DNA of 62,809 nt, the filler included, from Folioceros fuciformis (Eukaryota): assembly GCA_049999805.1 (NCBI GenBank). It is 10 parts of 10 records of this genome, joined end to end, with 100 filler letters (N's around TTAATTAATTAA, not from the genome) between each part and the next. Parts side by side here need not be neighbours in the genome. Positions count along the whole stretch, not along the records: positions 54,513 to 58,333 come from JBNGIO010005242.1; positions 58,434 to 60,932 come from JBNGIO010005243.1; 8 more parts are not named here. One strand, written 5' to 3'. Positions 6,688 through 59,819 of this stretch are shown here, piece after piece. Position 1 is the first letter of the stretch. Each line of letters starts with the position of its first letter. A model generated the notes under the pieces. The model saw only the letters and a list, made by a program, of their open reading frames with translations, did not search any database and was not told where the DNA came from. The position numbers were made by a program, and so were the translations under genes.

Positions 6688-9600
6688 TCACACTTTTCTA
6701 CTCCCACTTAGACTAGCTTGCTGCATATCAACTTTCACTCCACTTGGGTCTTGTTCTTCGAATGCTGTAACACCTAACGCTTTAGTGTGTTTCCAGTGTG
6801 CCTCCTTGGAAAGTGACTTTGTCAATTGATCTGCCATATTATCACTCAAGCTAATATACTTCAGCTCAAGCACAACATCTTCTATTGCCTTACGAATAAA
6901 GTGTTGTTTAACATCAATATGTCTTGTTCTTGAGTGAGCCACAGGATTCTTAGCTATGGCTATTGCGGATTGCTTATCACACTATTGCGGATTGATTATC
7001 ACACCAGATACATGAAGGTAATTTCTGGTCATGTCCAAGTGTTTCTAGCAATGACCTCATATGCATCAACTCTTGAGCTGCATATGTGACTTCCGAATAC
7101 TCTACCTCTGTCCACGACAGAGCAACGACAGATTGCTTCTTCGATGACCAACTTACCAAATTTCCACTTAACTTCAGACAAAAGTCAAAGACTCATCTCC
7201 TAGTATCCTTGTCTGACGCCCAATCTGAATCTGCATAGCACGTAAGCTCAACTCCAGTCTCAGCTTGTCTCTTATAGTGTATCCCATGACTTGCTGTGCC
7301 TTTAAGGTAGCGTAAAATCCTTTGAGCTGCTGACCAGTGTTGCTGGCTAGGGTTAGAAAGAAATTGTGATACGACTGAAGTTGCACATGCTATGTTTGGC
7401 CTCGTCCATGAGCTTAACCACAGCAAACATCCTACAAGCATCCTTTAAGGAACATTGACCATCTCATCTATCTCTGCCTAGCTGTTAGGGCACTGATCTT
7501 GTGTAAGGATAACTCCCACTGCAATCGGCGTTGCTACAGGCTTAGCATCTCTCATGTTAAATTTATCCAAAAGCCTCTCCACATAGTGCCTTTGATGTAA
7601 CACAATGTCACCAGATTGCTTGTTATTTAAAACCTGCACTCCTAAGAAGAAACTGCACTGTCCAATATCAGACATTTTAAATTAAGACGACAGAATCTGC
7701 TTTACCTCATCCACGATTTGCATAGAAGAACCTATGATGAGAGTGTCATCAACGTAGACCGCTAGGTAGGCTAATTCACTGCCCTTTGTGTAGACGTATA
7801 CACTCCCATCAGTTGCTGATTGCTTGAAGCCATGCTGCAAAAGAAACTTGTTCAAACGTCGATTCCACCCCCTTGGGGCTTGCTTCAAGCCATACGGAGT
7901 CTTCTTCAATCTGCAAACTTAGTTTGGATATTTTCGGCTGACGAATCCTTCTGGCTAGTGCATGAAAACTGTCTCCTCAAGCACTCCATTTAAAAACGCT
8001 GTTTGAATGTCCATCTAGTGGACATGAAATCCCTTCAACGCAGCAATGGCCAACAGGGTTCTAACAGAAGAAGAGCGAACTACAGGCGAGAAAATCTCAT
8101 TATAATCTATGCCCTCACGCTGAGAAAAATCACGCACCACAAGTCTGGCCTTAAACCGAGATATGGTACCATCAGGATTGAGCTTTCGTTTGAAATCCCA
8201 ACGATTTGTGACTGGTGTTCTTCCATGTGGCAACTCTTCTAGCACCCAGGTATCATTCTCGATCAGTGAATTATACTCTGATCTTATGGCCTCAAGCCAC
8301 TTGTCCTTGTCCTTTGATGATATTGCCTCTTGATACGTTTGTGGTTCTCCTAGATCTGAGGCTGCTAGATATACCTGAGATATCATAGCTAAACGAGGCA
8401 GTTGCCCTTCCATGGCATAAGGAACTTCATTCCACTCAAGAGGAGACGAAGTGTGCTTGCGAGTTGATCTACGTGGGTGAACAACGTCCTCTTATGATGT
8501 TTGTTGAGGTAGCTGGCTCACACTCACATTCAAATCAGCTTCATCATCAAAATCATGAGCTCCCACTTGCTCAGAACTGTCACTCACATCTTCTGGTTCA
8601 ACGTCATGGAAAAACGACACCTCCAACCACTCTAAGTTAGCTTCTTTTTGTTGTTCAGGTTGATGTAAAGAGAAATGATCTGGTTGGTCAGTTGGTACGT
8701 GAATCTGTTGTCCAGGCATGCCATGAGAAGCTTCATATTCTTCTGAGTCCAGAAAATCATCAACAATTAATTCACTTTCTTGATACTTGAGAGGAGAAGC
8801 TGCCAAAGTTGATCTTTCATTGAATTTGCCAAATCGAGCATGTGTGACTCTGCTTGTTCCTGGATCATAGGCTTTATATCCCTTAATACCTTCTGAGTAT
8901 CCAACAAAAAGCATTTGCTTGGCCTTGAAGTCGAGCCTTGTCCTGACTTCCTTAGGTATGTGTACAAAGACCTTACATCCGAAGATCTTAAAATGAGAAA
9001 TAGCTAGCTTCCTACCTATCTAGCGTTCAAACGGTGTGGAGTCCTTGAAAGCTGTCGTGGGAAGTCGATTTTGCACATAAGTAGCAGTGTGAACTGCCTC
9101 TGCCCAATACCTCCTTGATAGTCCTGACTGGTACAGCATGGCTTTTGCAGCTTCTTGCAGATAGCGGTTCTTAGATTTTGCAAGTGGATTTTGGCTGGAT
9201 GTGTATGGGACAGTGATCTGTCTTCCTATGCCAAGTGATCTGCAAAAGTCTTGGAAATCACCACTATTGAACTCTCCTCCTCCATCACTTCGAAGAACTT
9301 TAACTTTATTCCCAGTCTATCTTTGTGAATAATTCACATAATCCACAAATCGATCAAGTGCCTCTGATTTTTGACGTAGGAAATATGTCATAGTAAAACG
9401 GCTGTAATCATCCACCAGCACCATAAAGGAGGAGGCTCCTCCAAGAGATTTGACAGACATAGGTCCGCATAGGTCGGTATGTACGACAACAAGAGTTTCT
9501 GTGGCCCTATTTTGCTCATGAGGTTTCTTGGCATTTTGTTTTGGAACCTTAGCATGAATACAGGCATCACAAAATACATCTACTTCCTGGACTGTCCATG

Positions 9601-9865
9601 GAACCTTCTCTTGATACAGGTGTTCACCAACCATGTTCTTCATTTTATTATAGTTCGGGTGTCCCAAACGGCAATGCCAAAGTAGCTGATTATTGTCTTC
9701 ATCCAGACGCTTAGCTAAGTGTGCTTGAGTATGTGAGCTACTCGCACTTATCCCAACATGGGTGCAGCAATTGAGCCTATACAAGTCTGAATCCAAAACT
9801 CCTATGGCCAACTCGTTATGAGTCTTGCTATCAATCAATCTGCACTGATTTTCATCAAAGCTCAC
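6688..9865 (-). pseudogene. pol: Copia pol (GAG-pre-integrase, integrase, RT, RNase H) with stops and frameshifts
   Basis: LWHCRLGHP..CDAC; VHTDLCGPM; FVGYS; RFKARLVVRDFSQREGIDY; YGLKQAPRGW; YVDD; CYADSDWA; SWSSKKQSVVALS; HSRTRHIDVKQHFIR. Confidence 0.95.
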
Positions 9866-10056
9866 TTTCTAGGATGGCCCTAGCCTTCAAATCCTTCTTA
9901 TTCCAGGCTGTAATGTCTACTACCGCTGCGTTTTGTCCCGGGTGAGGAGCAGAGCCATCCACCACCTCCCATAGGTCTTCTATCATCAGAAGAGTCTTAA
10001 CCCTATGTGCCTAGACATCATAGTTGGACCCTGTGAATCGGTCCTTGTCCTTAAAA

Positions 10057-12985: not shown

Positions 12986-13731
12986 AGGCTAGTTGTAAAG
13001 GGATATGCACAACAATATGGTATTGAGGCTAGTTGTAAAGGGATATGCACAACAATATGGTATTGATTATGAGGAGACCTTTAGCCCTCTAGCTAAAATG
13101 GCTACTATGCTAACAATCATAGCATTAGTAACAGCTAAAGGATGGAAGCTATGGCAAATGGATGTCAAAATTGTATTTTTTAATGGTGAGTTGCATGAAG
13201 AAGTGTATGTGGAACAACCTGAAGGCTATATGCATCTGCAGTTTCCAACATATGTATGCAAATTAGAAAAGGCACTATGTGGATTGAAAGAGGCGCCTAG
13301 AGCATGGAATGTTCATATTGCTAACTATGTGAAGGACCTTGGTTTTGGGATTGCTGACGTAGATCCCAAGCTGTTTATCAAACATACTACAAAAGGAAAG
13401 GTACTTCTAGTTTTTTATGTTGATGAATTAATAGTTACAGGTGATTATCAAGATCGGATTGCTAATGTTAAAGCATATTTACAAAAAGGATTCAAAATGA
13501 AGGATTTGGGTAACCTCAAATACTTTCTAGGAATTGAGATTATATCTACACCTTAAGGAATCTAGTTCTTGCAAAAATAGTATGCTTACAATATGTTCCA
13601 GAAGTATGGCATGGTAAACTGTAAAGCTATAGATACACTATTAGAGCAAAACGTAAAATTGCAAATGAATGTTGAAACAGAATTAGAGGATGTTACCATG
13701 TATTGTCATATGGTGGGTAGTTTGATCTACT
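12986..13731 (+). pseudogene. Isolated Copia RT fragment
   Basis: RLVVKGYAQQYGIDYEETFSP, QMDVK, LCGLKEAPRAW, YVDE, MKDLGNLKYFLGIE. It begins with a 40-bp tandem duplication (12986-13065) and is closely related to the RT at 17118-17957. Confidence 0.93.
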
Positions 13732-16140: not shown

Positions 16141-17964
16141 TGTTGAAATAGCACCACAGGCCAAGAAGGACTCCACAGTTCCTTACTTATGGTGCCATGA
16201 TGCTACATATATAGCCTTCAGGCGGGGCAACCCTCGATAAGGTAAGCCTTAGTCTCGAGGGTGCAATATCCTAGTATATCCTTATAACACTTAGGTGATA
16301 GATAACTACGAGTTCAATATGGGATAATCTACACTATCCTAAGTGTTGTATGCTCTTAATAACAATTCAGTTAAAGCTTGATTTCTAACACTCCCCCTCA
16401 AGCTCAAACTATTTGTAACACTCCAAGTAGTTCACGAAAGTGTAAGAACTTATCTCTACCTAGCGACTTAGTAAAGATATCTGCTACCTGGTCTTTGGTC
16501 TTCACGTGCCGAAGATCTATCTTCTCAGATAATACCGCTTCCCTGATGAAGTGATAATGCACTTCTATGTGCTTCGAACGAGCATGAAACACAGGATTAG
16601 TAGCCAACCTCATGCTACTCATGTTGTCACAGTAGATTGTAACCTTGCTGTTCACTATATTTCCAAGATCATGTAGCAACTTCTGCAACCAAGCTGCTTC
16701 ACAGGCTGCCATTGCAGCTCCTCGATACTCTGCTTCTGTGCTTGACAAAGCAACTGTCGGTTGTTTCTTGCTTTGCCAGCTGATCATACTACTTCCTAGA
16801 CTGAATGCATATCCACTGGTTGATCTTCTGTCATACGCACGACCAGCCCAATCAGCATTTGTATATCCTGTCAATTCAAGATGCTTCATACGCTCATAGA
16901 GCAATCCAAACTCAGTAGTTCCTTTCACATATCTCATGATTCTTCTAACTGCATCCAAGTGCGGTTTCCTTGGGTTCTGCATGAATTGACTAATCAGTCC
17001 TACTACATAACTTAAGTCAGGACGTGTGATAGTCAAATAGATCAAACTTCCGACCATCTGTCGATATATAGTCACATTTTCCAGCTCAACTCCTACATCC
17101 ATTTGCAGCTTGACGTTCTACTCCAATGGTGTATCCATCGCTTTGCAATCTACCATGCCATACTTCTGCAACATATCCTTAGCATATTGTTTTTGGAATA
17201 GCCAGATTCCTTGAGGTGTAGACACAACCTCAATTCCTGAGAAGTATCTGAGTTCACCAAGATCCTTCACCTTGAACTCTTTTTGCAGATTCGCCTTGAC
17301 ATCTGCAATACCATTTGCATCATCTCCTGTGATGATCAGGTCGTCAACATAAACGACAAGACACACTTGTCCTACCTTGGTCTGTTTTACAAACAGACTG
17401 TGATCTGCGTCTCCAATCACAAACCCTCGCTCCTTCAAATAGCTTGTGATACGAGCATTCCATGCTCTAGGTGCCTGTTTGAGTCCATACAATGCCTTCT
17501 TCAGTTTGCAGACGTATGTTGGAAACTTAGGATGAACATAGCCTTCAGGCTGTTCCACGTACACTTCCTCTTGCAACTCACCATTCAAGAAGGCATTCTT
17601 GACATCCGTTTGCCATAACTTCCATCCTTTAGCTGCTGCTAATGCTATGACTGTCCTTACAGTTGTCATCTTGGCTACTGGACTAAAGGTTTCCTCATAA
17701 TCAAGACCATACTGTTGTGCATATCCCTTTGCAACCAACCTGGCCTTGTAATGCTCCAGCGTTCCATCTGACTTGAACTTTAGCTTGTACACCCACTTAG
17801 AACCGATAGGAACCTTGCCATCAGGCAATTGAACCAAATCCCACGTTCCGTTCTCAACTAATGCTGAGTATTCTTCATCCATGGCTTGACACCACTTATC
17901 ATCTGTCACTGCCTCAACAAACTTGGTTGGCTCCTTACAAGCTGTGACCCTTGTCATATACGCA
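16141..17964 (-). mobile_element. Ty1/Copia element, 3' part (RT, RNase H, PPT, 3' LTR)
   Basis: LTR 16141-16390 (TGTTGAAAT..ATTTCTAACA) and PPT at 16391-16400 (tgagggggag on the minus strand). The 5' part is lost in the gap. Confidence 0.93.
16404..17957 (-). pseudogene. pol: Copia RT-RNase H, nearly intact (one internal stop at 17118)
   Basis: YKARLVAKGYAQQYGLDYEETFSPV, LYGLKQAPRAW, YVDD, TRPDL, SWQSKKQPTVALSSTEAEY, CDN, ADIFTK. Confidence 0.97.
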
Positions 17965-40678: not shown

Positions 40679-43351
40679 TGTCGAGGGCCTAAGTGTTTGG
40701 GCCTTAGGCATTAAGTAGCCGCATATCATAACCTAAACCTAACCGCCACCAGGACCAACCGCTGTCGGGTATGACGGTTGAGTCAAGGGACATCGTCCCT
40801 AGACCTGGACGTGTCCGCTGACCCTTATGTATCGCGCTGCTCACATGAGCTAATCTAATCTTGTCTTTCTGCTAGCATGCATATGATCTCTAGTTTTTTG
40901 CCTATCTCCTATGTTGCCATAATGCGATATGGTATCAGAGCCATTAATCGCTTTTTTCTTGGCCTGCATCTCGCCTGAGAATGGATTCTTGGAGAATGCA
41001 CAATCTCGTGAGCATTCATCTTAGAAGAGCAGGTCAAGACATTAGCATCTAGGAGAGATCGCAGCGCCTCTCGAGGCCTGCATCATGCCTCGACGCGATT
41101 GAAGATCCCAATGCCAGAATCAGAGTGCCTGGATGCAATCAGAGTTCCAGTCAGTCCAATCTCGGGCACTACAACCGGCAGCTGCGAACTGGAATTCTAT
41201 AGGTCTGAAAGCATATCTACAAGCAGAGATAGAGATACGACCAACCTTCTTGTTCGAATCTCTTGCAAGTTAGATTTGCTGGATAGAGAAGTACGTGACC
41301 TTGCTGTTGCACTCACTTCTCTCAACCTGTGTCCACGAAGAACACAACCCCCTGCATCTGAGAATGGGGTCACATTTTGACCAGTAGATGCATATGGGTT
41401 ATGGTCACCAGTCCATCCTCGTCTGAAGGAGGGTCAACATCCTCATCCAGACCCCAAACACCTCCACAAAGACCAAGGCTTCTCAGAATTCCCTTATGGA
41501 CAACACCCAAGATTCAGGCAGTACCAAGCATGTCTGGAGCTGGTGGCGGTGGCGGTGGAGGGGGAGGAGGCGGAGGAGGGAGTGGTGGCGGTGGTGGTGG
41601 TCCGCAACCACAAGCACCTGTACACACAAGTGTCACACACTTCAAAGTAGACCTCAAGGATAGAGATCGCTTCAATGGGAGCGAGTATGAGATCTGGACA
41701 TAGTCTTGGGAACGAACGTGAAGCCACCAGTAGGTTCCCCACCAGCGGACATTGATGCCTGGGTCAAGGGTGACTGCCGAGCACGGAGCATCCTTGTAGC
41801 AGGATTTGACAAAAATATGTTGCACCATGTGCAAGGACTGGACACAGCTGCTGAGATGTGGTCCACCTTTGATCAGATGTTCCAGACAAAGAACTCTGCA
41901 TCCATGGTTAACTCTACACGAGCCTTTTGGCACCTCAAAATGAAGGAAAGTGAGCCAATTGAGGCTCACCTCAATAAGTTCCGAGCACTTCGAGCTCGTC
42001 TTGCTGCATGTGGCACTAAGGTGGACGAAACCCAGGCTGCAAGAGCTCTTCTTATGTCACTACCTTCCAGCTACTGTACATTTGTCTCCTCATAGAATAA
42101 CAATATGCGGGCTGCTGGTGGAGGTAACCTGACAGAGGTCATCGGTGCAGTACTAGAAGAAGAAGCAACTAGACATGGCAGTCGCCATGATGGTAGGCAT
42201 GATGGTGCAAGCAACTCAAGCAAGGTGCTGTATTCATCTAAAGGAAAAGGACCCTACTTGTCAAATAGCAGGCAAGGGGGAAGACGTACCTTAGTGTCAA
42301 AACCCTACAGCTCCAAGAAGAAGGGAGCTTGCAACTGGTGCAAGATCCCGGGGCACTTCGAGAAAGAATGTCGGAAAAAGGCTGCAAGGGAGCCCAAACG
42401 GGACGGATCCTCCAGTGCTGAGACTCATACAGCTGCCATTAAGAAAACAGGCACCATTCTTGCTACCTGCCTAGTATCTTCAAACGAGGATCGTAAATGT
42501 TGGTTCATGGACTCGGGGGCATCCCATCACGTCTGCAATCAACATGAGGCGTTTACAGAGTACAAACCTGTTTTGAATGATCAGACAATCCGGGTGGGAG
42601 ATAACCGTGAACTACCCATATTAGGGACGGTTCAGTCCCACTAAGTCTGCCATCTAGACATGAAATCACATTGGCTGATGTTCTACATGTTCCTAGGATG
42701 GTAAAGAACCTAGTATCTGTCACAAAATTGAAGGTGACCTTACAAGGGTTCGAGTGCTGTTTGAGTCGGAGCATGATGAATGCCATATTGAACAAGATGG
42801 AACAATCCTGGCCAGAGCATATCCCTCCAACGATTTGTACAAGTTGGAATGCACACCGTCCAGGATCTATCGAGCTGCTCACCTTACACAAGCTGATCAC
42901 TTTGCTCAATTCAGGCTATGGCATCACAGACTTGGCCATATCAATGTGCGTAGGACGAAGGAGGCTGTTGAGGGAAACCTGTACAGAGAACCCCTCAAGC
43001 TTCAGCCTCAACCCAAGTTGTTTTGTGAGCCCTGCATTTACGGCAAGCATCACAAGTCACCTCACTTAGACAAAAACCATACAAGAGCTAAGGTTTTGCT
43101 GGAGTTAGTACATTCTGACTTGTGTGGACCCATGTCCAAGTTGTCTGTTGGAGGAGCAAAATATTTCCTTTCTTTTATAGACGACTGGAGCAGGTTTACA
43201 ATTGTCTACTGTTTGGCTAAGAAGTCTCAGACATTAGAGTCCTTCATGGATTACCTTGCAACTGCACAGCGTCAGACTTCACACCTGCTCAAAACACTTC
43301 GCACAGATGGTGGGGGTGAGTACGGGTCCAATGCCTTCAAACAGCTCTGCT
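40679..43351 (+). mobile_element. Ty1/Copia element 5' half (LTR, PBS, extra ORF, gag, protease, integrase start)
   Basis: LTR 40679-40929 (TGTCG..CGATA); PBS TGGTATCAGAGCC at 40930-40942. Confidence 0.92.
41530..43351 (+). pseudogene. gag-pol: Copia gag-protease-integrase, degenerate
   Basis: Poly-Gly N-terminus; DRFNGSEYEIW; LLMSLPSSY; CNWCKIPGHFEKEC; WFMDSGASHH; LWHHRLGH..CEPC; LVHSDLCGPM; LRTDGGGEY. Confidence 0.93.
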
Positions 43352-45440
43352 GTGGCCAGGGCGAAGTTCCTAATCGAATCTCTCAAATTTTGGCGGCTAG
43401 TAGGCTACTTGCATTGGAAAAGCCCACCTCAGGAGTGCGCCCTATTGCTATGGGGGAGGTATTTTTGTGCCTTATCAGCCGAAGTATTGCAATTCAACTT
43501 CATGAGTACTTCCAAGCGCATCTTGCAACCCACCAATTTGGGATTGCTACCCCAGGTGGGTGTGAATCTGTCGCTTTCGGCATCCAGGCGGCCCTTGAGT
43601 TACATCCTCACTAGGTAGCTTTGCAAGTTGATATTTAGAATGCTTTCAACACCGTCTCTAGGGTCGCCATTTTCTCGGAGCTCAAGAGTGCAGGAGGTCA
43701 ATTGGCAAGTCTTATCCCTTTTGTTCGCTCCTTCTATGGCTCGCCATCCAAGCTCTACTACCAACATGGCCCGACTATTGAGGGGGTCTTAGTTTTTGAT
43801 TCAGCAACAAGCACAAGGCAAGGGGATCTGCTGGGGGGTGCTCTTTTTGCAATGGCACATTTTCATGCGTTGTCCTCTACTACCTTAGCATTTCGAGAAT
43901 GCCTTTTCCCTTCCGTGGTTGATGACACTCATATTCTTGGGCAAGGAGTCACAGTCAAAGCAGCATTTGATTTCTTCTCATCAGAGCTCTCCAAGGTGGG
44001 GTTGCGGGTCAAGCTATCTAAATATAGGGTTTGGTCTCCTTCGAGCACCACTCCCCCCCTTCAATATTTTGGGGGGGGGATATCACCCCCTCGCAGGGAC
44101 TTCGAGTCTTGGGTGTGCCTATGGGACCTCCTGATTTTGTTCATAGGTTTGTGGATGAAGCATTGGATGAAGATTTGGCTCATATCATGGACCTCTCACA
44201 AATCGGTGATCCTCAGATTGCGTTTGGTATCCTTTCTTCTTGTTTTGCACGGCGACCAGGTTACCTCACTAGAACTGTTGCGCCTTCTCTATTTTTCTTA
44301 TCAAGTCTCAAGAAGTTTGATGAACAAGTATGCAGGCTCTTGGGAACATAATAGGTCCGGGCACATTCGAGTGTGTTGTCGGTGATTTGGCTCGGAAGCA
44401 GGCTTCTTTGCTAGTCACCTTTGGAGGGGTTGGTCTTTTGGCCATGGAAACCTCTGCCCCAGCTGCCTTTCTCGACAGCTGGGTCCTCTCAGCTCCAATT
44501 TTGGCCTCTCGTTTTTTGCTACAGGATTCCCCTGTTCTTGAAAGTTTTATTTCAGGTGTTGAGGAGGGCGTTTTCCCTTTACAGGTGTCTCTTAGGCAAG
44601 CGAGGGATTCCCTACCTTTGGAGGCTTGTGAGGCTCTACCTCCTTTCACCTCCTTTTCTAGGGAAGGGTTGAAGGGTCTCCAAGCCTCCCTCCTAGAAAA
44701 GCAATATGACCAAGCACTAAGAGCCCTTCTTTCAAACTCATCCATCCCTAGGTCTTCTTGAGCTCGTATTCGATCTTGTTCAGGTAAAGGAGCGGGCTCT
44801 TGGCTCTTAGCTCGACCTTACATCCAGGCGTTTCGAATCGCACTAGTAACTTTCGCCATCGCGATCAGATTTCACTTAGGTTTGGCCCACCTCTTGGCTT
44901 TTTCTCTCTCTACATGCAGTTGTAGGGTTGTCATTATCAATACAGGGTCCCATTTGGCGCGTTGTCCCGTTGGGGGGCACGACATTGCCACTCATGATGC
45001 AGTTCAAGATGTCATGTTCTCAATGGCTAGGAAGTGTGGGTTTCTTCCGTATAGGGAGCGTCCATATACTTTTCACTTAGAGCCGACCTTTTCTTCACTA
45101 GGGGAGAACAAGTTTGTGTTGATGATGTGATTGTTACGGATCCTGCTAGGGATTCGATTTTTGAGCACGTCATCATCAACCTCCCTGGTTGGGCAGTAGA
45201 GGGTTGTGTGAGTGCCATAGTCCATAAGTATTCTCCATTGCAAGACGGGCGTACTTTCATCCCCCTTGCTCTTGAGACTCATGGAGCTATGGGAAAGGAC
45301 TTTTCAAGGTTTATCAAGGAGTGCGCCAAGGTTTTGAAAATGATATTCGCAGGGGGGAGTACCTCTTTTTGCCTTTGGCCCTAATAAGGTTGTTCCTCCA
45401 ATCTTTGGAGTAGATGGGACTTTCTATCTCTTTTTCAATC
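43352..45440 (+). mobile_element. 5'-truncated CRE-like non-LTR retrotransposon (RT, zinc finger, restriction-like endonuclease)
   Basis: RLLALEK..GVRPIAMGE; HQFGIATPGGCE; NAFN; RQGDLLGGALF; SVVDDTHILG; GLRVLGVPMG; GGVGL; CSC..HLARC..THDAVQD; FIPLALETHG. Confidence 0.85.
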
Positions 45441-45836: not shown

Positions 45837-47781
45837 GCTCGGCTCTTCCATTCATTTCAGAATGATAGGGGATCGTTAGTTGCCTTGTTATGCCCCTATC
45901 CTCACAGAATTCTTGAAAAGCATGAGACAAGTACTCCTTGGCATTATTTGACCTGATGCACTTGAGCTGTCTGCCTGTTTGCCTCTCAGCGTATGCCAAG
46001 TATTTTTTAAAATAGTCAAAGACTTCACTTTTATGCTTCAGCAGAGACGTAAAAGTGAAATGAGGTATGTCATCCTCGAAGACTACAAAGTATCTTGCTC
46101 CTCCCCAAGAGGAAGAGGACATGGGTCCACATATGTCGGAGTGAACCAGGTCAAGAGTCTCAGTAACCTTACGAGGTTTCCCACTTCCAAAGTGGGACTT
46201 GGACTACTTTCCATGGATACAGGCAACACACAACTCTAGATCATGAAGTTCTAATTCTAAAATACCAGTGACCATTTTTTCCCTAAGTAGACGTCTCATT
46301 GCCTTTATGTGTGGATGACCTGATCTACAATGCCACAAATAGGTTTGGTTAACTGGTGCCTTTGCGTCTGCTACATGTGCTGTAGGTTTAGAGGACTCTA
46401 GAAAGAAATCTAGAAGATAAAGATCATAAAGAGGTCTACCACGGACTATAACGGTGGATGGAGACTGAACTGAAGAAATGGCACACTCTACACCCTCAAA
46501 GGTAATCTTATACAAACCTGTCTTTCCCAAATACATTGTGCTAACAAATTTTTTTGTGAGTAGGGGGACATGCAAGGTATTTGCTAACTCAAAGGGTGAC
46601 CCATTCTGCAGGGTTACTACTACTGTCCTGGAACCATGGATTGGCAACTGTGAGTTATCACCTAGAACCACTGCATGATCATGACCAGAGGGAGTTGGGG
46701 TGTATGTAACAAAAGCTCTTCTCATGGAACACATGTGGTTGGAAGCACCACTATCCAAGAACCAATGAAAGGTGTCTCTTGAGGATGAGGCAAGACACGT
46801 AACAAGCAGCCCTGGCGTCGAGGCCCTGGTAACATGTGTCTCTAAAGGGTGCTTTCCTTGAGCAAAATCATCTGACTTCTTCTTTCTGCAGTCCTTGACC
46901 CAATGGCCTGGTTTGCCACAGTAATTACACACGCCAGGCTTTTTAGCTAAGCTGCTAGAACTACTGTAGTCAGATGAAAATGAAGGTGAGGACATATACC
47001 CTCTGCCTCGACCAGAACCTCCCCTGCCACGGCCTCCTCTTCCGCGACCTCTGCCACGTCCTCGTCCACCAAAAAGAGCTGAGTCTCCATGCTTGTTGAA
47101 CTGACCTGACTTCATGTGCTTTCTACTTGCTTCTGCTTGAAGAAGTGCACCAACCAACTTCTGAACAGTTAAGTTAGTCTGTGCAGGTTGGGATGTGGTT
47201 CCACTGCTACTGCTTGTTGACTGGAGCTCCAAGCTTCATAGCTTGGAGGTAAAGATGCAAGGAGTTGTACTGCTGCCCTACTTTCGGACAAAATTACACC
47301 ACAAGAGGCAAGTCTGGCCCTTGCAGCGCTGAACTTAGCCACATGATTCTCAATGGAGTCAGACTCCCTCATCCTTAAGTTCTGAAAATTCTGAGTGGCA
47401 GCAACCTCGGTCATGATGTCCTTAGACTCATATGTTTCAGCCAAAAGCGACCAGACTTCATGTGTAGTGCTAGTGAGCTTTATGTGTGGTATCATCTCCT
47501 GATACTGATGCAACTAAAATGGAACGAGCCTTCCGGTCGTATCTTGTCCATTCTGCTGCTTGCACGGTTGTCCAATTAACCACGTTCTATCCTCCAGGTG
47601 ACATAGCTCCAGACGGCTGACCAGCAACCCGTTTGGGTATAGAGCAGTCAACAATATCCATGAGAAGCTTGTCTTCCAAAATGCATCTTATGTGAAAACT
47701 CTAGGTATCGTAATTTGAAGGGGTTAACCTGTCCCTTTCAGGTAGGCGGTCATATGATGAGTCTCCACCTTGACTACTCAT
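45837..47781 (-). pseudogene. gag-pol: Copia gag-protease-integrase, degenerate
   Basis: DRLTPSNYDT; LLASLPPSY; RGG-rich tract; CNYCGKPGHWVKDC; WFLDSGASNHM; LWHCRSGHP..CVAC; IRSNNAKEY; EMNGRAE. Confidence 0.93.
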
Positions 47782-52796: not shown

Positions 52797-53924
52797 GGGG
52801 TTACTGGGCATAAGCTATTGATTCTGTGAACTATGTTGCCAACCGATTCCCCCTTAAACCTTTGTACAACACAACTCCTTTTGAAAGATGGTCTAGACAC
52901 AAGCCACGTATTGGTCACCTTCGAGTTTTTGGTGCTATGGCATATGCCTATATTCCTACTGATAAGCACTATAAGATGGACAATAGGGCAACCAAACATG
53001 TGTTTGTCGGCTATTCCGACACAATCAAAGGCTATAAGCTTTTTAATCCCCTTACAAGGGAACTATGTATTGCTCGCAATGTAAGTTTTAATGAAGATTT
53101 CATCCTAGACTCACACGCACATACTAGCACTAGCCATGACCTCATACATGCAGGTTCCGTCTATGGACACACACCCTCTGCAATTTTCACTGACCAACCT
53201 GTACAGTTAGATTATGAAGACAACATATACCACCAGTCAGATTTTGATATGAACTTTTAAGTCAACCTCAACCTTTGAATTATGAAGCACCCTTACCAAC
53301 AATTGCAGCACCTGACTTTGATGAGCCTGACATTGACATACCACCTGATGATGATCAGCCTCTCTTCCAGAATCATGATGATCTTGGGCCATCCCATATC
53401 GCTGATGACATATTAGATCCTGATTTACCAGCACTTGTCCGTGTTGCTGTTGAGTCACAACAAGAGCCTTTACAAGATCAGTTACCTTTACGTAGGTATG
53501 CACGGACACATTGTCCAAGAGAAGCTTGGTTGGAACCTTCCTACACACCAGGTGATTCTTTTGTCTCTTGTGCAACATCAAATGCTTCAGACAACATGCG
53601 AGCTACTCTAGCAGAGATGGCTTAGCACATTGCTCTTACCATTATGGAGCCTCCTGATACGCCTATGACATAAGGAAGCTCTTAGTTCACCCCAAAAAGT
53701 AGACTGGCAGAAAGCCATTGATAGTGAGTACCAATCTTTGATAGACAACCACACATGGAAGCTAGTCAAATTGCTTGTGGATGGAAGCTATTACCTCAAA
53801 ATGGGTATTTAAACCTAAGCTTCATCATGATGGGTCTGTTGCTAGATACAAGGCCCACCTTATAGCACGGGGCTACACCCAAGTTCAAGGCCTCGATTAT
53901 AATAAGAATTTTAGCCCCGTAGTC
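52797..53924 (+). pseudogene. pol: Copia integrase C-terminus, linker and RT start
   Basis: YWA*AIDSVNYVANR..TPFERW..HLRVFG..VFVGYS..GYK; KWVFKPK..RYKAHLIARGYTQVQGLDY..FSPVV. Confidence 0.93.
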
Positions 53925-54512: not shown

Positions 54513-55300
54513 GCTATCACTTCAACTTTACCATCAGATGGTGCCGTACCCCTAGGCGCTATAAAATGTCCCACATATGCTATCTTAGAGGACCCAAACC
54601 TGCACTTTTGTGGGTGACACGTCAAACCAACCTCTCTCAGTCTATCCAACACTCGCCTAACATGCTCCTTATGTTCTTCCACACTACTACTAAAGATTAT
54701 TACATCATCTATGTAACATATGGTGAATGACAAACCCCTCAATGCTTCATTCATCGCTCTCTGAAAAGCACTAGGAGCATTCTTCAATCCAAATGGGATA
54801 ACCACCCATTCCCACAAACATCTATTAACCCAAAAAGCAGTCTTCTTCTTATCCTCCTCCTCAATTTCAGTTTGGTTAAAGCCACCCCTCAAGTCCAATG
54901 TTGAAAATATATTACATTCACCAATTGCATCAAAAATCTCCCTTGGCGTTAGCATTGGATATCTATCCATAGGCGTCACCTCATTAAGCGCTCTATAGTC
55001 ACCACACATCCTCTTTTCTGTCCAATTACCATGTACATTCTTCTTTCGTGGGAGCTCCGTAGCTGTTGCATACTCTAATTCCAAAGATCTTATCAATCCA
55101 GCTTCAAGCAGCTCTTGACATTTCTTGTCCACAATCTCATTCTGCAATTTACTCAAACGATATGGCTTTCTAAAAACCGGTTCAAAAGTTTCAAACGTCT
55201 TGTGCCTGCCCAATTCCTTATTGGAAAAAGCAAATACCTGCCTGCTACTTTCCAAAATCCTTACAAAATCCTCCCTATCCTTCAAGGTTATCTCATCAGA
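54513..55300 (-). pseudogene. pol: Gypsy reverse transcriptase
   Basis: PVFRKPYRLS; KRMCGDYRALN; DRYPM; FSTLDLRGGFNQ; KTAFW; PFGLKNAPSAFQR; YIDDVIIFS; HPQKCRF. Confidence 0.96.
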
Positions 55301-55589
55301 AATATCCCACTGAAAATCCATACACTCCTGTTTCTCACAGATGTTAACCTCACAGCTTGAGCTAGCCACATTCTCAGCTTTTCTTTCCGCATCTACCACC
55401 TTTGCCCCATATCTCATTTGCTTGCTCTGCTTGCACTCATCACCTAAAACCTCATCATGCTCTCTCATTCTCTTAGTCTCCCCCCAGCGTCTAGGCCTTC
55501 ATCTCTTCTTACTTTACCTAGACTACGTCCTTCCAACCTTGTGCTTAAAATAACTTTCCACTTTCTCTTGCACTCATGATAAACTTTTT

Positions 55590-56540
55590 TAGACATCATA
55601 AGCCATCTAGCTGTATTCAAATCCATAGCTTGTTTGAGTTTTTTATTCCTCTGCTCAAATGTTATACCCTCCACTTGAGTAGNNNNNNNNNNTCTCTCTC
55701 CATGGGAGATGACACATCCCACACCTTCCTCTTCGTATCAAATATCATCCCAAGCCCTTCCCCTTTAAATGCATTGGCACCCTCAAAACTTACAAATGTC
55801 GGTAACGCCCTCCTGAGTTCCCCCTTTTTATTTACACAATAAAAGGGCTGTCTATCATCTGAAGTCACCTGCCTACTCACTCGCCCGTCATCTAATATCT
55901 GATCAACTATTAAATCATCATCCCTTCGCCACTGACTCAGAAGCATCTACAACAAATGCCTAGGCATCATGTTATTCCAAAAACAGTGATGCCTGTGAGC
56001 CCTAGATCCAAACTGCACTGCCTCCAACTTTATAGGTTCACCCAAATAATACTTGATCTCATCAAAATCTCGCCTCAACGCTACTCTTCTATCCATTTGG
56101 GAATCCACACTCTCAATCAAAAAACCATATTCTTTCTTCTGATGCTTTTGTACCAAATTCAAAATCCTAATCAGCACATAAAATATCACCGATCTATAAT
56201 CCAACAAGCCTTTTGCCTTGCCTGCCATTGAATGCCCTTGACATTCCCAGCCAGCTATTATCATATCAACTTCTTCCTCCACTTGAAATTGTACCAATCC
56301 AATAAGCCTAACATCTTGCGGCCAAACAGAAAACGCTTGCTTCACAGCTTCAACCTTTAATTGCTCAGGATACTTTCTACATAATTTAAACACCCTTGCC
56401 TTCGCAATCGTCTGACAAACTTCATATGGGTCACAATATATGTAACGTCTGACCACATACCCAACAGCCAACACAGCCTCCAGACCATATGCAATCCGAG
56501 CAAACAACTCAACCACAACCAATCCATACTCAGACAAACT
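55590..56540 (-). pseudogene. C5-cytosine DNA methyltransferase domain embedded in pol
   Basis: Motif I VVELFARIAYG (about 56510), II YIYCD, III PQDVRLI, IV VDMIIAGWECQGHSMAG (Cys codon at 56241-56243), V GLLDYRSVIF, VI FLIESV, VIII AVQFGSRAHRHHCFWNN, IX/X PMER..QRNKKLKQAMDLN, all in canonical order. Confidence 0.88.
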
Positions 56541-56633
56541 CAATGTCACAAGTTTATTACACACAGGTTCAAGTGTACAAACTGCTTCCTTTGTACAAAG
56601 CTGAATTTTATCATCTAGTTGAAACTCAGTATG

Positions 56634-57383
56634 TCATTTTTCAAGCTCTCTAAAAATTTCAGCTAATGCTCTACCAACATTTTCTCTCATTGTGATCTCC
56701 TCCACTCTGTTATGACTATATTCCTTTAAACATAACTTATCCATATGACGCTCCACCCACAACTTATCATCTTCATCTTCTTCCTCCTGCTCATCCCAAG
56801 AAGTCGTCATGTTTACTACACACGCATCTTGCATGTCCTCCTGTAATTGCAACTTAAGTGGAATTGTTGCTACTCTCATTCCTTCACCTTGTCGCCAACC
56901 TGGACGATAGTAAAACTCCTCTATCCATAAGTCCACTCCTCCTCCATGCATGAATAAAGACTCTGTCCCTAAAATAACATCAAAATTTCCAGATTTGACA
57001 ATCAAACATTTCATATCAATCGTTGTCTCTTCTTCTGTCCCAGGCTTAAAACATAACTGCAATTTCTCTTTAGTTTCCCCCATAACTACCTTTAGGCCTC
57101 CATTGGCCATCCTAATCTTCCATCTTGTCTCCTGTATATCTTCCTTTCTCAATCCCATAGCATATGCCGTGCTGAAATGGATCAATGTAGGTTGCACTGC
57201 CGAATCTATCAATACCTTTTTAGGTGCAAAACCTTCTATCAAAAATTCACACCCACCATTGTCCAGAAATGCAATTCCTGGTCTAACTTTTGTTCTGTCT
57301 CCATTATTTCGCATATTACCATTGAGACACAGTGAAACTGTCTTGCTTAGCTTTTCACTTGCATTAGGCCTTTCTACTATCAC
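56634..57383 (-). pseudogene. Gypsy aspartic protease region
   Basis: VLIDSA (degenerate DSG), IRMANGG, FDVILGT. Confidence 0.8.
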
Positions 57384-57407
57384 GTCTTGTAAAAGTTCTC
57401 GGATTTT

Positions 57408-58310
57408 TTACTCGCTCACCCCCACTTTGACGCCCAATTCTAACACACTTCGAATACAACCAATCACATCACTTTGAGACACCTGCATTCTCTTGCTCAC
57501 TTGTTGTTCCAACACCTTCACTGCTCTGCCATGCATCTTCTCACCAAAATCTTTCATATCCACATCTAATACTTCAAATGATTGCGGATATTTCCAACCT
57601 GACACCGCTGATCTTCCATGGTCTTTATCCTGACCTTCCAGTCTTGTGTTGTATCTTTTTTGAGCAACCTCTACTTCCAATGCATCTCTCCTGTCCACTT
57701 CACAAACAAATGCATCCAGTTGAAACTCCTTGTAAGCTTTCTCCTTCTCACCCAAATCCTTCCTTTTTTCCATTGTCCTAACTTCCTTGATTTTAACTCC
57801 GCCATTCTCACCACCAGCTGCCTTCAACCTATCATTCTCAGCCTTCAAGTCTACTATCTGCAACTCTAACGATTTGTAAGATTTGTTCATCCGACCCAAA
57901 TTATCTCCATTGGTTCCTCCAAATCTATTTCCTTCAGCCCTCTACACCTATCTCACATTCTTAACAGTATGCCCCTTAAAACCAAACTTTGTGGGCCTGA
58001 GAGATGGATACTTCTGCCAACAAACTTTCTCCAAATGTCCTTTCTTTCCACAATGACCACAACCTACATCCCTCTTAATTGAACACTCCATCATCACATG
58101 AGAACTACTCCCACAACGCAAGCACTTTATCCCTTTTTCTGTCTCTACATTCATGACAAGTTTCATGTACCTGTTGTCCATTCTTGACATGTTCGGCTGC
58201 TCCTGCCAAGTTGGCCTCCATTTAGGCAGAAAATTATGTCGGGAAGCTGTCGCTGAAAATACACCTCCCTTCCTATTTGCCCCAACCTTTCTTCCCATAG
58301 CCTTTAGCAA
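57408..58310 (-). pseudogene. gag: Gag C-terminus with two CCHC zinc knuckles and a coiled-coil linker
   Basis: CLRCGSSSHVMMEC and CGHCGKKGHLEKVC (CX2CX4HX4C); LELQIVDLKAENDRLK. Confidence 0.8.
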
Positions 58311-59819
58311 TGCTCTTGCCTGCTCATGCTTTTNNNNNNNNNNNNNNNNNNNNNNNNNNNNNNNNNNNNNNNNNNNNTTAATTAATTAANNNNNNNNNNN
58401 NNNNNNNNNNNNNNNNNNNNNNNNNNNNNNNNNTTTCTTACTCACACTAGTCTCTTTCTTTATTGTGATGTGGTTTTTCTTAGTCTCTTTCTTATTGGGA
58501 TGTGGTTTCACTTACCTTCTAAGCTTTTTGACTCACACTAGTCTCTTTCAGTATTATGATGTAGTTTTTCTTGGTCTCTTTTTTTACAACAATGAGGTTT
58601 CACTTCCTCTCTTTCTTATTACGATGGGGTATGGCTCGACCTCGTTCTTTGTAACGATGAGGTTTTGATGATCTATGTGTAAGGTTGTGGTTATAGTGCA
58701 CCTCTCTATGACACAAAAACCTATATTGCTCAACCACATAGCAATGAGCAACACTATATTGCTCAACCACATAGCAATGAACAACACATTACCATATAGG
58801 ATGTTTTTTATGATATCATTCTTATTAGCAAAGAGAGAGGCTTCTTTCCTTGTAAGGAGCACTCTTTCATTGTTCACAAGGATGTTTCCCTCAAACCTTT
58901 TTTCACTAATCAGCATGAGTTTATCTTGTGGTTGTGATTGTTGGTGACCTAGAGATTCCATCTATAAACATGTCATCCTTAAACCTCCAATGTAGATGGT
59001 AAAGGTCCACAAATACTCTTTCATGTGGTAGGGGCATGCCTTCATCCCTACGCCATCCAAGTTTATGATGCAATGGGCCAGGCTACTTCTAGGTTTCTTA
59101 AGGTATGTGCACATGGCAAGAAGTAGCATAGTCTTCAGAGTTGGATTGACCGCTTTCAAGCATTGTGGCTTTTCTATGCGCATTATGTGTTCATCTTCCT
59201 TGAGTGGGGCATTGGCTAATGCAGTATATTAGATGATAGCAAGTATAAGGTATGTGGTATCTTCAGCACTAGTTTTAGATAAAGTCCTTCTCTATCACTA
59301 ACATTGATATGCTTGGCATGTAGGCAGTTAGTTATAAGATAGCAACAAAAGAAATTACTCGACCATCATCTTGTGCCCTCCTAAAGATTGTTTCCCTTGT
59401 CTTAGGGTAGATGGGTCCTTCATAGTACATAACAAAGTCTTTATTCTCTCAATTCATAATAGTACTCCAAGCACCATTCGAAGTACATCACACTCCAAGC
59501 ATTGGAGCACCATACTCTCGGCATCTCTTTAAGTGTTCAATTTGCATCCTCTAAGTTTAATTTGCAATGCTTAAAAGGGTGCAACACACAATGCTACAAA
59601 AGGTGTAACAACATAATGATCGAAAGAGTGTGATACACAATGCTGAAAAGGGTGTAACATACAATGCTTAAAAGCGTGCAATATATAATGCTCAAAAGTA
59701 TATTTTACAATGTTCATAAGAGTTCGACATGAAATGGGTATAATATAAGCATACAAGTTAGATCAAGATCGCAAGTTGGTAAAAAGTGAAAAGTCACCAT
59801 TTTCAAAGCATGAAGGAGT

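Follow-up and report, generated by a model that had tools for sequence, protein, structure and literature searches.

The window analysed here is a stretch of 62,809 bases (1-62809) from Folioceros fuciformis, a chain of ten unplaced scaffolds joined through spacers of 100 bases (44 N, a 12-base linker, and 44 N). Our subject is a retrotransposon-derived sequence with a DNA methyltransferase domain at 54513-58333, which is exactly one whole scaffold (JBNGIO010005242.1; 3821 bases, small and unplaced); since it lies between artificial spacers, its neighbours in the window carry no positional information. On its minus strand, the scaffold carries a gag part with two CCHC zinc knuckles, a protease, a C5 cytosine methyltransferase, and a reverse transcriptase (RT), after which the scaffold ends [Table 1]. 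A sequence-only reading of this DNA had claimed such a same-strand gag-protease-X-RT series, with C5 methyltransferase motifs in canonical order in the place of X. Our analysis bears out both the collinear order, with the methyltransferase between the protease-like region and an RVT_1 domain, and the presence of all the motifs on the minus strand. The scaffold is very probably a truncated and decayed copy of a high-copy Ty3/Gypsy-type retrotransposon, of a lineage with a Dnmt3-like C5 DNA methyltransferase (DNMT) between protease and RT.

From gag to the methyltransferase, a single minus-strand frame (58331 -> 55701) runs for 877 codons and contains 5 stops, where a random frame of this length is expected to contain about 40 (3/64 per codon). 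Two C-x2-C-x4-H-x4-C motifs can be read directly in the gag translation, and the Pfam match of this part to zf-CCHC_5 is weak (15.1 bits, under the cut-off); the Pfam scan of the linker that follows returned no credible match. The protease region also scored weakly in Pfam (gag-asp_proteas, 15.4 bits, under the cut-off). Its identity is nevertheless accepted because BLASTP alignments to the protease regions of four relatives cover the active site (P0009, E 3e-32; P0005, 3e-28; L003 ORF1, 4e-22; P0039, 7e-14), while the fifth relative in the comparison, P0205, aligned solely downstream of the active-site triad. The RT frame matches RVT_1 with 109 bits (E 3.4e-31). Loose ends of sister contigs run into the 10-N assembly gap, at which relatives read ERE.AMGF, and the C-terminal methyltransferase piece beyond it aligns to residues 1225-1251 of L003 ORF1 and to the GQAMDLNT block of relatives.

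Table 1. Features of the scaffold at 54513-58333, in positions of the window
Feature	Position	Strand	Basis or remark
gag C-terminal part (nucleocapsid), two CCHC zinc knuckles at ~58020-58124	57948..58331	-	truncated at scaffold end
two in-frame TAG stops	57945-57947, 57939-57941	-	frame reading
charged helix-like linker, nucleocapsid to protease	57408..57941	-	frame shared with gag and protease
in-frame TAA stop	57408..57410	-	most sister contigs in X1 and X2 differ by one letter here
retropepsin-like protease, triad D-S-A at ~57198-57206	56634..57407	-	BLASTP to protease regions of relatives
in-frame TGA stop, protease/methyltransferase junction	56634..56636	-	frame reading
Dnmt3-like C5 cytosine methyltransferase, motifs I-VIII and target-recognition region	55701..56633	-	PF00145, PDB, AlphaFold2/Foldseek, relatives
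in-frame TAG stop inside methyltransferase	55947-55949	-	relatives have sense codons there
10-N assembly gap within methyltransferase, at motif IX	55683..55692	.	
methyltransferase C-terminal piece (motif X region, ..LKQAMDLN..) and linker ending in TGA 55465-55467	55465..55689	-	
overlap of methyltransferase frame and RT frame; RT in -1 frame; six-G run 55480-55485	55465..55498	-	
RT, 328-codon open frame, Y-I-D-D present	54513..55498	-	ends at scaffold edge

The methyltransferase motifs occur in the order VVELFARI, PQDV, DMIIAGWECQGHSMAG, GLLDYRS..F, FLIESV, QFGSRAHR, and PMER / ..QRNKKLKQAMDLN, so that motifs I, IV, VI, VIII, IX, and X are non-permuted, motif IX being partly masked by the gap. 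The profile and structure comparisons that the sequence-only reading had proposed both support the assignment. PF00145 matches 55947-56633 with 27.9 bits against a curated cut-off of 22 (E 2.1e-6), relatives score 26.7-51.1 bits with the same profile, and a protein-language-model look-up also leads to PF00145 clusters. The best matches in a sequence search of the PDB are DNMT3A catalytic domains (E 7.4e-5), with M.HhaI and M.HaeIII ranking behind. An AlphaFold2 model of the domain (pLDDT 89, pTM 0.86), which was built on an alignment (A2) of 52 relatives and leans on that family alignment, matches 171 PDB chains at E<=0.001 in Foldseek (best E 3.4e-11); the matches listed, down to rank 48, are all DNMT3A/B/C with TM 0.5-0.66, which indicates that the methyltransferase fold is present. 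Judged by the ranking of PDB matches, the domain is Dnmt3-like. It shares with the animal DNMT3A/3B/3C catalytic domains, the best match by sequence and fold, the A-H-R-x-R-x-x-W-x-N block of motif VIII. It differs from them in that the identity is only 17-24%, in that no PWWP or ADD domain accompanies it (Pfam scan), and in motif IV, which ends in C-Q rather than C-N with E replacing P.

The domain is not a peculiarity of this scaffold. Three DNA runs of one organism and one sample, possibly the same sample as the assembly (X1, X2, and X3), contain 758, 700, and 1368 contigs, respectively, with at least 80% likeness to the scaffold. These sister contigs cover 30/30 bins of the scaffold in each run, with coverage of the methyltransferase bins resembling that of the protease and RT bins. 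A fourth run (X4, guessed to be RNA) gave 3 partial contigs of <95% likeness, which have no bearing on expression. A HMMER scan of 1.84 billion representative proteins with the methyltransferase domain retrieved 880 representatives at E<=1e-3, a number that falls to 417 at <=1e-10 and to 110 at <=1e-30; most of these matches sit inside polyproteins of 1000-3400 amino acids. The scaffold domain is 37-46% identical to relatives. The RT search retrieved 194 proteins at E<=1e-10, of which the top two carry PF00145; the scaffold RT is 51% identical to P0004, 48% to P0175, and 45.8% to L003 ORF2. The named RT relatives come from Closterium spp., Klebsormidium nitens, and the liverworts Calypogeia fissa and Marchantia polymorpha, with animals further out. 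The same protease-DNMT-RT order, which the sequence-only reading had proposed to seek in intact genomic copies, was found in relatives by Pfam scan: zf-CCHC, (protease), DNMT, RT, RNase H, and integrase in both P0039 and the Closterium protein P0205, and DNMT, RT, and RNase H in Marchantia P0211. The intact metagenomic element L003 is collinear with the scaffold across both joints, residues 654-1214 of its ORF1 corresponding to 57368-55695 and residues 7-301 of its ORF2 to 55366-54515. The nearest RT relatives of the scaffold are RT-RNaseH-integrase polyproteins, and the Ty3/Gypsy order of protease, RT, RNase H, and integrase is present in P0004, P0039, P0205, and L003. One further relative (P0176; RT-RNaseH-integrase-PHD, 50% identical to the scaffold RT) comes from a EukProt transcriptome assembly, and therefore at least one member of the lineage is transcribed somewhere. 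Separately, a protein named as the DNA cytosine methyltransferase of a Candidatus Obscuribacterales metagenome-assembled genome (P0001) is 90.5% identical to the C-terminus of the L003 gag-protease-DNMT product; its 2.4-kb contig is probably a fragment of a eukaryotic retrotransposon that was binned with the bacterium.

Intact relatives extend past RT into RNase H, integrase, and a C-terminal PHD finger. L002, L003, and L004 each encode gag, protease, and DNMT in a single frame closed by TAG, after which RT, RNase H, integrase, and PHD continue in-frame. The stop context (2081-2089 in L002, 5083-5091 in L003, and 4661-4669 in L004) is TAG CAG TTA or TAG CAA TCA, that is, the UAG-CAR-YYA leaky-stop signal of tobamoviruses (Firth et al., 2011, PMC3159437; here and below, published work is taken from the openly available parts of each source). 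The probability of this context after a given stop by chance is about 1 in 512, and the three loci are kin. By this likeness readthrough is predicted between the two halves of these elements; the scaffold copy differs, as the context is absent and its RT lies in the -1 frame. Other relatives (P0004, P0039, and P0205) have DNMT and RT in one shared frame. A more distant relative, L007, carries a TAG in the methyltransferase frame immediately ahead of motif IX (2990-2992), which matches the site of the 10-N gap of the scaffold. A second architecture, in which DNMT lies between RNase H and integrase (RT, RNase H, DNMT, integrase, and PHD finger), was observed in P0017, P0035, and 48 further rows. 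These 50 rows, whose members are from environmental sources, form a single RT clade (support 99) within a larger clade. The residue before the catalytic cysteine in motif IV (scaffold residue 130, ~56244-56246) is E in 26/52 and P in 22/52 relatives; E-C-Q and P-C-Q forms are each found in both domain orders, and the remaining catalytic residues are conserved (the cysteine in 51/52, the ENV glutamate in 52/52, R214 in 51/52, R216 in 52/52, and the motif I glycine in 41/41). The open text of the papers searched mentions neither the PHD finger after integrase nor the leaky-stop arrangement, the E-C-Q loop, or the second domain order, although their figures and supplements may show some of these.

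We compared the phylogenies of RT (164 rows, FastTree; IQ-TREE on 66/164 rows representing each group) and of DNMT (164 DNMT segments). The scaffold, every DNMT-bearing row, and the Klebsormidium, Closterium, and liverwort rows fall in one RT clade (FastTree 96, IQ-TREE SH-aLRT 94), with animal and other Gypsy rows outside it; rows of the second architecture entered via the DNMT search and so carry the domain by construction. In the DNMT tree, the scaffold lies in a 49-row set (support 99) made up exclusively of rows of the protease-DNMT-RT type or unclassified rows. P0004 is nearest to the scaffold in both trees, and this agreement indicates that the domain travels with its RT; the DNMT is a member of the family that co-varies with the RT. 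Between natural relatives, the ratio of nonsynonymous to synonymous substitution (dN/dS) of DNMT is 0.16 (L003/L002, dS 0.24) and 0.13 (L003/L004). The corresponding values are 0.13 for protease, 0.03-0.04 for RT, RNase H, and integrase, and 0.44-0.54 for the linker after DNMT. DNMT is thus close to protease, above RT, RNase H, and integrase, and far under the linker that follows it, and is under purifying selection in intact relatives. Both comparisons had been suggested by the sequence-only reading.

The copy on the scaffold itself is dead, a pseudogene of its family that is able to make none of its proteins, because there are five in-frame stops, a frame change before RT, an altered protease triad, and replaced invariant methyltransferase residues. 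The activity that the sequence-only reading had envisaged is, for this copy and on these grounds, not borne out. Relative to the C-terminal methyltransferase piece, RT is shifted into the -1 frame, and inspection by eye of the DNMT/RT overlap in the zero frame found no -1 slippery heptamer, just a six-G run. The protease triad is D-S-A in the scaffold against D-T/S-G in 4/4 relatives whose alignment covers the triad. In the methyltransferase, the catalytic cysteine and the ENV glutamate are retained. However, the full set of catalytic and cofactor residues (F-x-G-x-G, P-C, E-N-V, and R-x-R) is not intact, since the motif I glycine is replaced by R, the ENV asparagine by S (E-S-V; N in 47/52 relatives), and the motif VIII arginine by H (R in 52/52). 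The scaffold departs from the consensus at 8/44 conserved columns as compared to a median of 5.7% in the 52 relatives, of which 3/52 are equally deviant. The P-to-E change in motif IV (G-W-E-C-Q) was considered as a further defect of this copy and rejected, as E stands there in 26 of the relatives. Among the sister variants listed, those at stops concern one stop alone, the variant there being a transversion, and a one-base length variant within the frame overlap is present in 3 contigs in each of the three DNA runs. As sister contigs differ at one stop and vary by one base in the frame overlap, the defects are at least partly private to the scaffold copy or its sub-lineage.

Retrotransposon-borne DNMTs have precedents, and those named by the sequence-only reading (dinoflagellates and Klebsormidium) are correct. 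In Klebsormidium nitens, the Pol polyprotein of a Gypsy element, KnitGypsy-Dnmt3, includes a Dnmt3-related domain, and Dnmt-type domains are also found in DIRS and LINE elements of Symbiodinium (de Mendoza, 2018, PMC5890265); a 2025 paper and a 2026 preprint cite this work as the streptophyte case. The novelty for land plants that the same reading had implied is not borne out, the same arrangement being present in named proteins of Closterium spp. and Marchantia polymorpha. The scaffold element is another host's member of an already published kind, not a new kind. We found no description of the element in Marchantia or Closterium in the open literature searched, which leaves subscription papers, figures, and supplements outside its scope. 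With KnitGypsy-Dnmt3, the scaffold element shares an intronless Dnmt3-related domain within a Gypsy-type polyprotein of a streptophyte and purifying selection on DNMT (Ka/Ks <0.2 there as against the 0.13-0.16 in relatives of the scaffold). It differs in abundance, since few copies are reported in K. nitens and hundreds of contigs match the scaffold. Two K. nitens proteins (P0195 and P0196), which may or may not be KnitGypsy-Dnmt3, share the RT clade of the scaffold (support 96, 94); compared by RT alone, they are 43-45% identical to it and are not its sisters. SymbioDIRS-Dnmt3 and SymbioLINE-Dnmt of Symbiodinium are likewise retrotransposon-borne C5 methyltransferases, the former Dnmt3-like, located in Pol, and reported to methylate CG in yeast (PMC5890265). 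They belong, in contrast, to the DIRS class with a tyrosine recombinase and to the LINE class, in another host lineage and by independent acquisition. EpiLTRs (bioRxiv 10.64898/2026.05.21.726589), long terminal repeat (LTR) elements with adenine and cytosine methyltransferases and a chromodomain, resemble the relatives of the scaffold in combining a DNA methyltransferase with a chromatin reader, here DNMT with PHD. Their DNMT module, however, is sister to DNMT4 and paired with a Dam-like domain, and in the accessible text their authors call it distinct from the streptophyte Gypsy-DNMT3.

A one-off insertion or misassembly, which the sequence-only reading had named as the outcome that would speak against it, could in principle have joined a fragment of a host Dnmt3 to a Gypsy fragment in a single copy, nested or otherwise. 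The scaffold is short, unplaced, interrupted by a 10-N gap, and from a repeat-rich assembly. This explanation is nevertheless highly improbable, given that gag, protease, and DNMT run in a single frame without an intron, that intact relatives are collinear across both joints, that sister contigs in three runs cover the DNMT as they do the protease and RT, and that the two trees agree down to the identical nearest relative. It is just as far-fetched that the stops are decoded, either through several readthrough sites or under a variant genetic code, and that the copy is functional. Five stops without a frameshift across 2.6 kb do look tidy, and relatives appear to use one leaky UAG. Against this, all three types of stop codon are present, none of them in the scaffold has the CAR-YYA context, one falls within the catalytic domain where relatives have sense codons, most sister contigs differ at another, and invariant residues are replaced as well. 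A decayed member of a DNMT-bearing Gypsy lineage accounts for the scaffold far better, and several observations still weigh against parts of that account. LTRs, RNase H, and integrase are all absent from the scaffold, which can be called Gypsy only through the similarity of its RT and by way of the relatives; terminal repeats were sought in L003 and L004, and none was found except a 144-nt tandem pair in L004. The nearest relative is 44-51% identical, which suggests that this is not the published Klebsormidium family itself. The clade with the named streptophyte elements is below star level in the better model (SH-aLRT 94), and the position of the scaffold RT within it is not fixed by the tree. 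The leaky-stop relatives (L002, L003, and L004) are close kin, and the scaffold is without their stop context. Finally, E rather than the canonical P precedes the catalytic cysteine in half of the family members, and the domain of KnitGypsy-Dnmt3 gave no methylation in yeast, a result that its authors call inconclusive (PMC5890265).

These last two observations bear on what the enzyme would do. In three intact relatives, the methyltransferase lies upstream of the stop with gag and protease, and would therefore be made with Gag and not in step with RT. In intact members of the family, DNMT may be translated as part of the Gag-protease product, its frame ending at a leaky UAG in some relatives and continuing into RT in others; the protease could excise it inside the particle, and it might then methylate the newly made cDNA or the new insertion. 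The possible benefits are that the copy would pass for host DNA that is methylated already, or that the family would restrain its own dosage, while the PHD finger of the integrase might guide the choice of target by recognizing histone tails. The same scheme of particle and cDNA or new insertion was put forward by De Mendoza et al. for their elements (PMC5890265). Methylation of cDNA by the DNMT of this lineage is a tentative suggestion drawn from sequence, and we give it less than even credence. Alternatively, the family domain may in practice not be a DNA cytosine methyltransferase, but a pseudo-enzyme that binds nucleic acid or S-adenosylmethionine (SAM), or an enzyme acting on RNA or on RNA-DNA hybrids during reverse transcription. 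The split of motif IV into E-C-Q and P-C-Q forms, both present in both domain orders, and the yeast result would suit such a role. The retention of the other catalytic and SAM-binding residues in relatives, a dN/dS of 0.13-0.16, and the CG methylation in yeast by the related SymbioDIRS-Dnmt3 domains (PMC5890265) argue the other way, and we regard this alternative as unlikely, though not negligible.

Taken jointly, the observations on the scaffold and its relatives might describe an old streptophyte-wide Gypsy lineage, liverworts included, with an epigenetic toolkit: a DNMT, often of the E-C-Q form, made in excess over RT via a leaky UAG, and a PHD finger on the integrase, with a sister branch that moved the DNMT between RNase H and integrase. 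This broader picture is speculative and, as a whole, rather doubtful. In the conflict between genomes and their parasites, retrotransposons that bear the usual silencing enzyme of their hosts are a rare turn of events that still lacks an explanation. To this subject the dead copy on the scaffold contributes merely another host; the relatives reached through it are more useful. The lineage appears broad, with members in Klebsormidium, Closterium, liverworts, and many environmental sequences, and it supplies natural variants for probing the role of the enzyme (E-C-Q versus P-C-Q, two domain positions, and leaky stop versus fusion).

The sequence and the reads also provide some hints on methylation in the host. 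The observed/expected ratio of CpG on 54513-58333 is 0.41, the lowest of the ten scaffolds (range 0.41-0.73). Run X3 is bisulfite-like, with full-depth G>A changes at sites that have none in X1 and X2. The listed, best-supported sites converted at full depth in X3 only are all CHH on the coding strand (19/19, with 0 CG or CHG), where CHH accounts for 283/440 of the coding-strand cytosines on the scaffold; this hints at methylation of the family at CG and CHG in its host. An Rfam search of the whole window returned 0 matches. On other scaffolds, Copia-like open frames with pieces of gag, integrase, RT, and RNase H were recognized by eye at 8018-9868 (-), 12999-13553 (+), 16407-17117 (-), 42096-43611 (+), 46207-47235 (-), and 52814-53257 (+), and the frame at 16407-17117 (-) matched Copia clusters that are commonest in Streptophyta; taken with the Gypsy relatives of the scaffold at 54513-58333, this is a weak pointer to a streptophyte host. 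A 248-codon open frame at 43639-44382 (+) resembles, by eye, a fragment of a non-LTR (LINE-type) RT.

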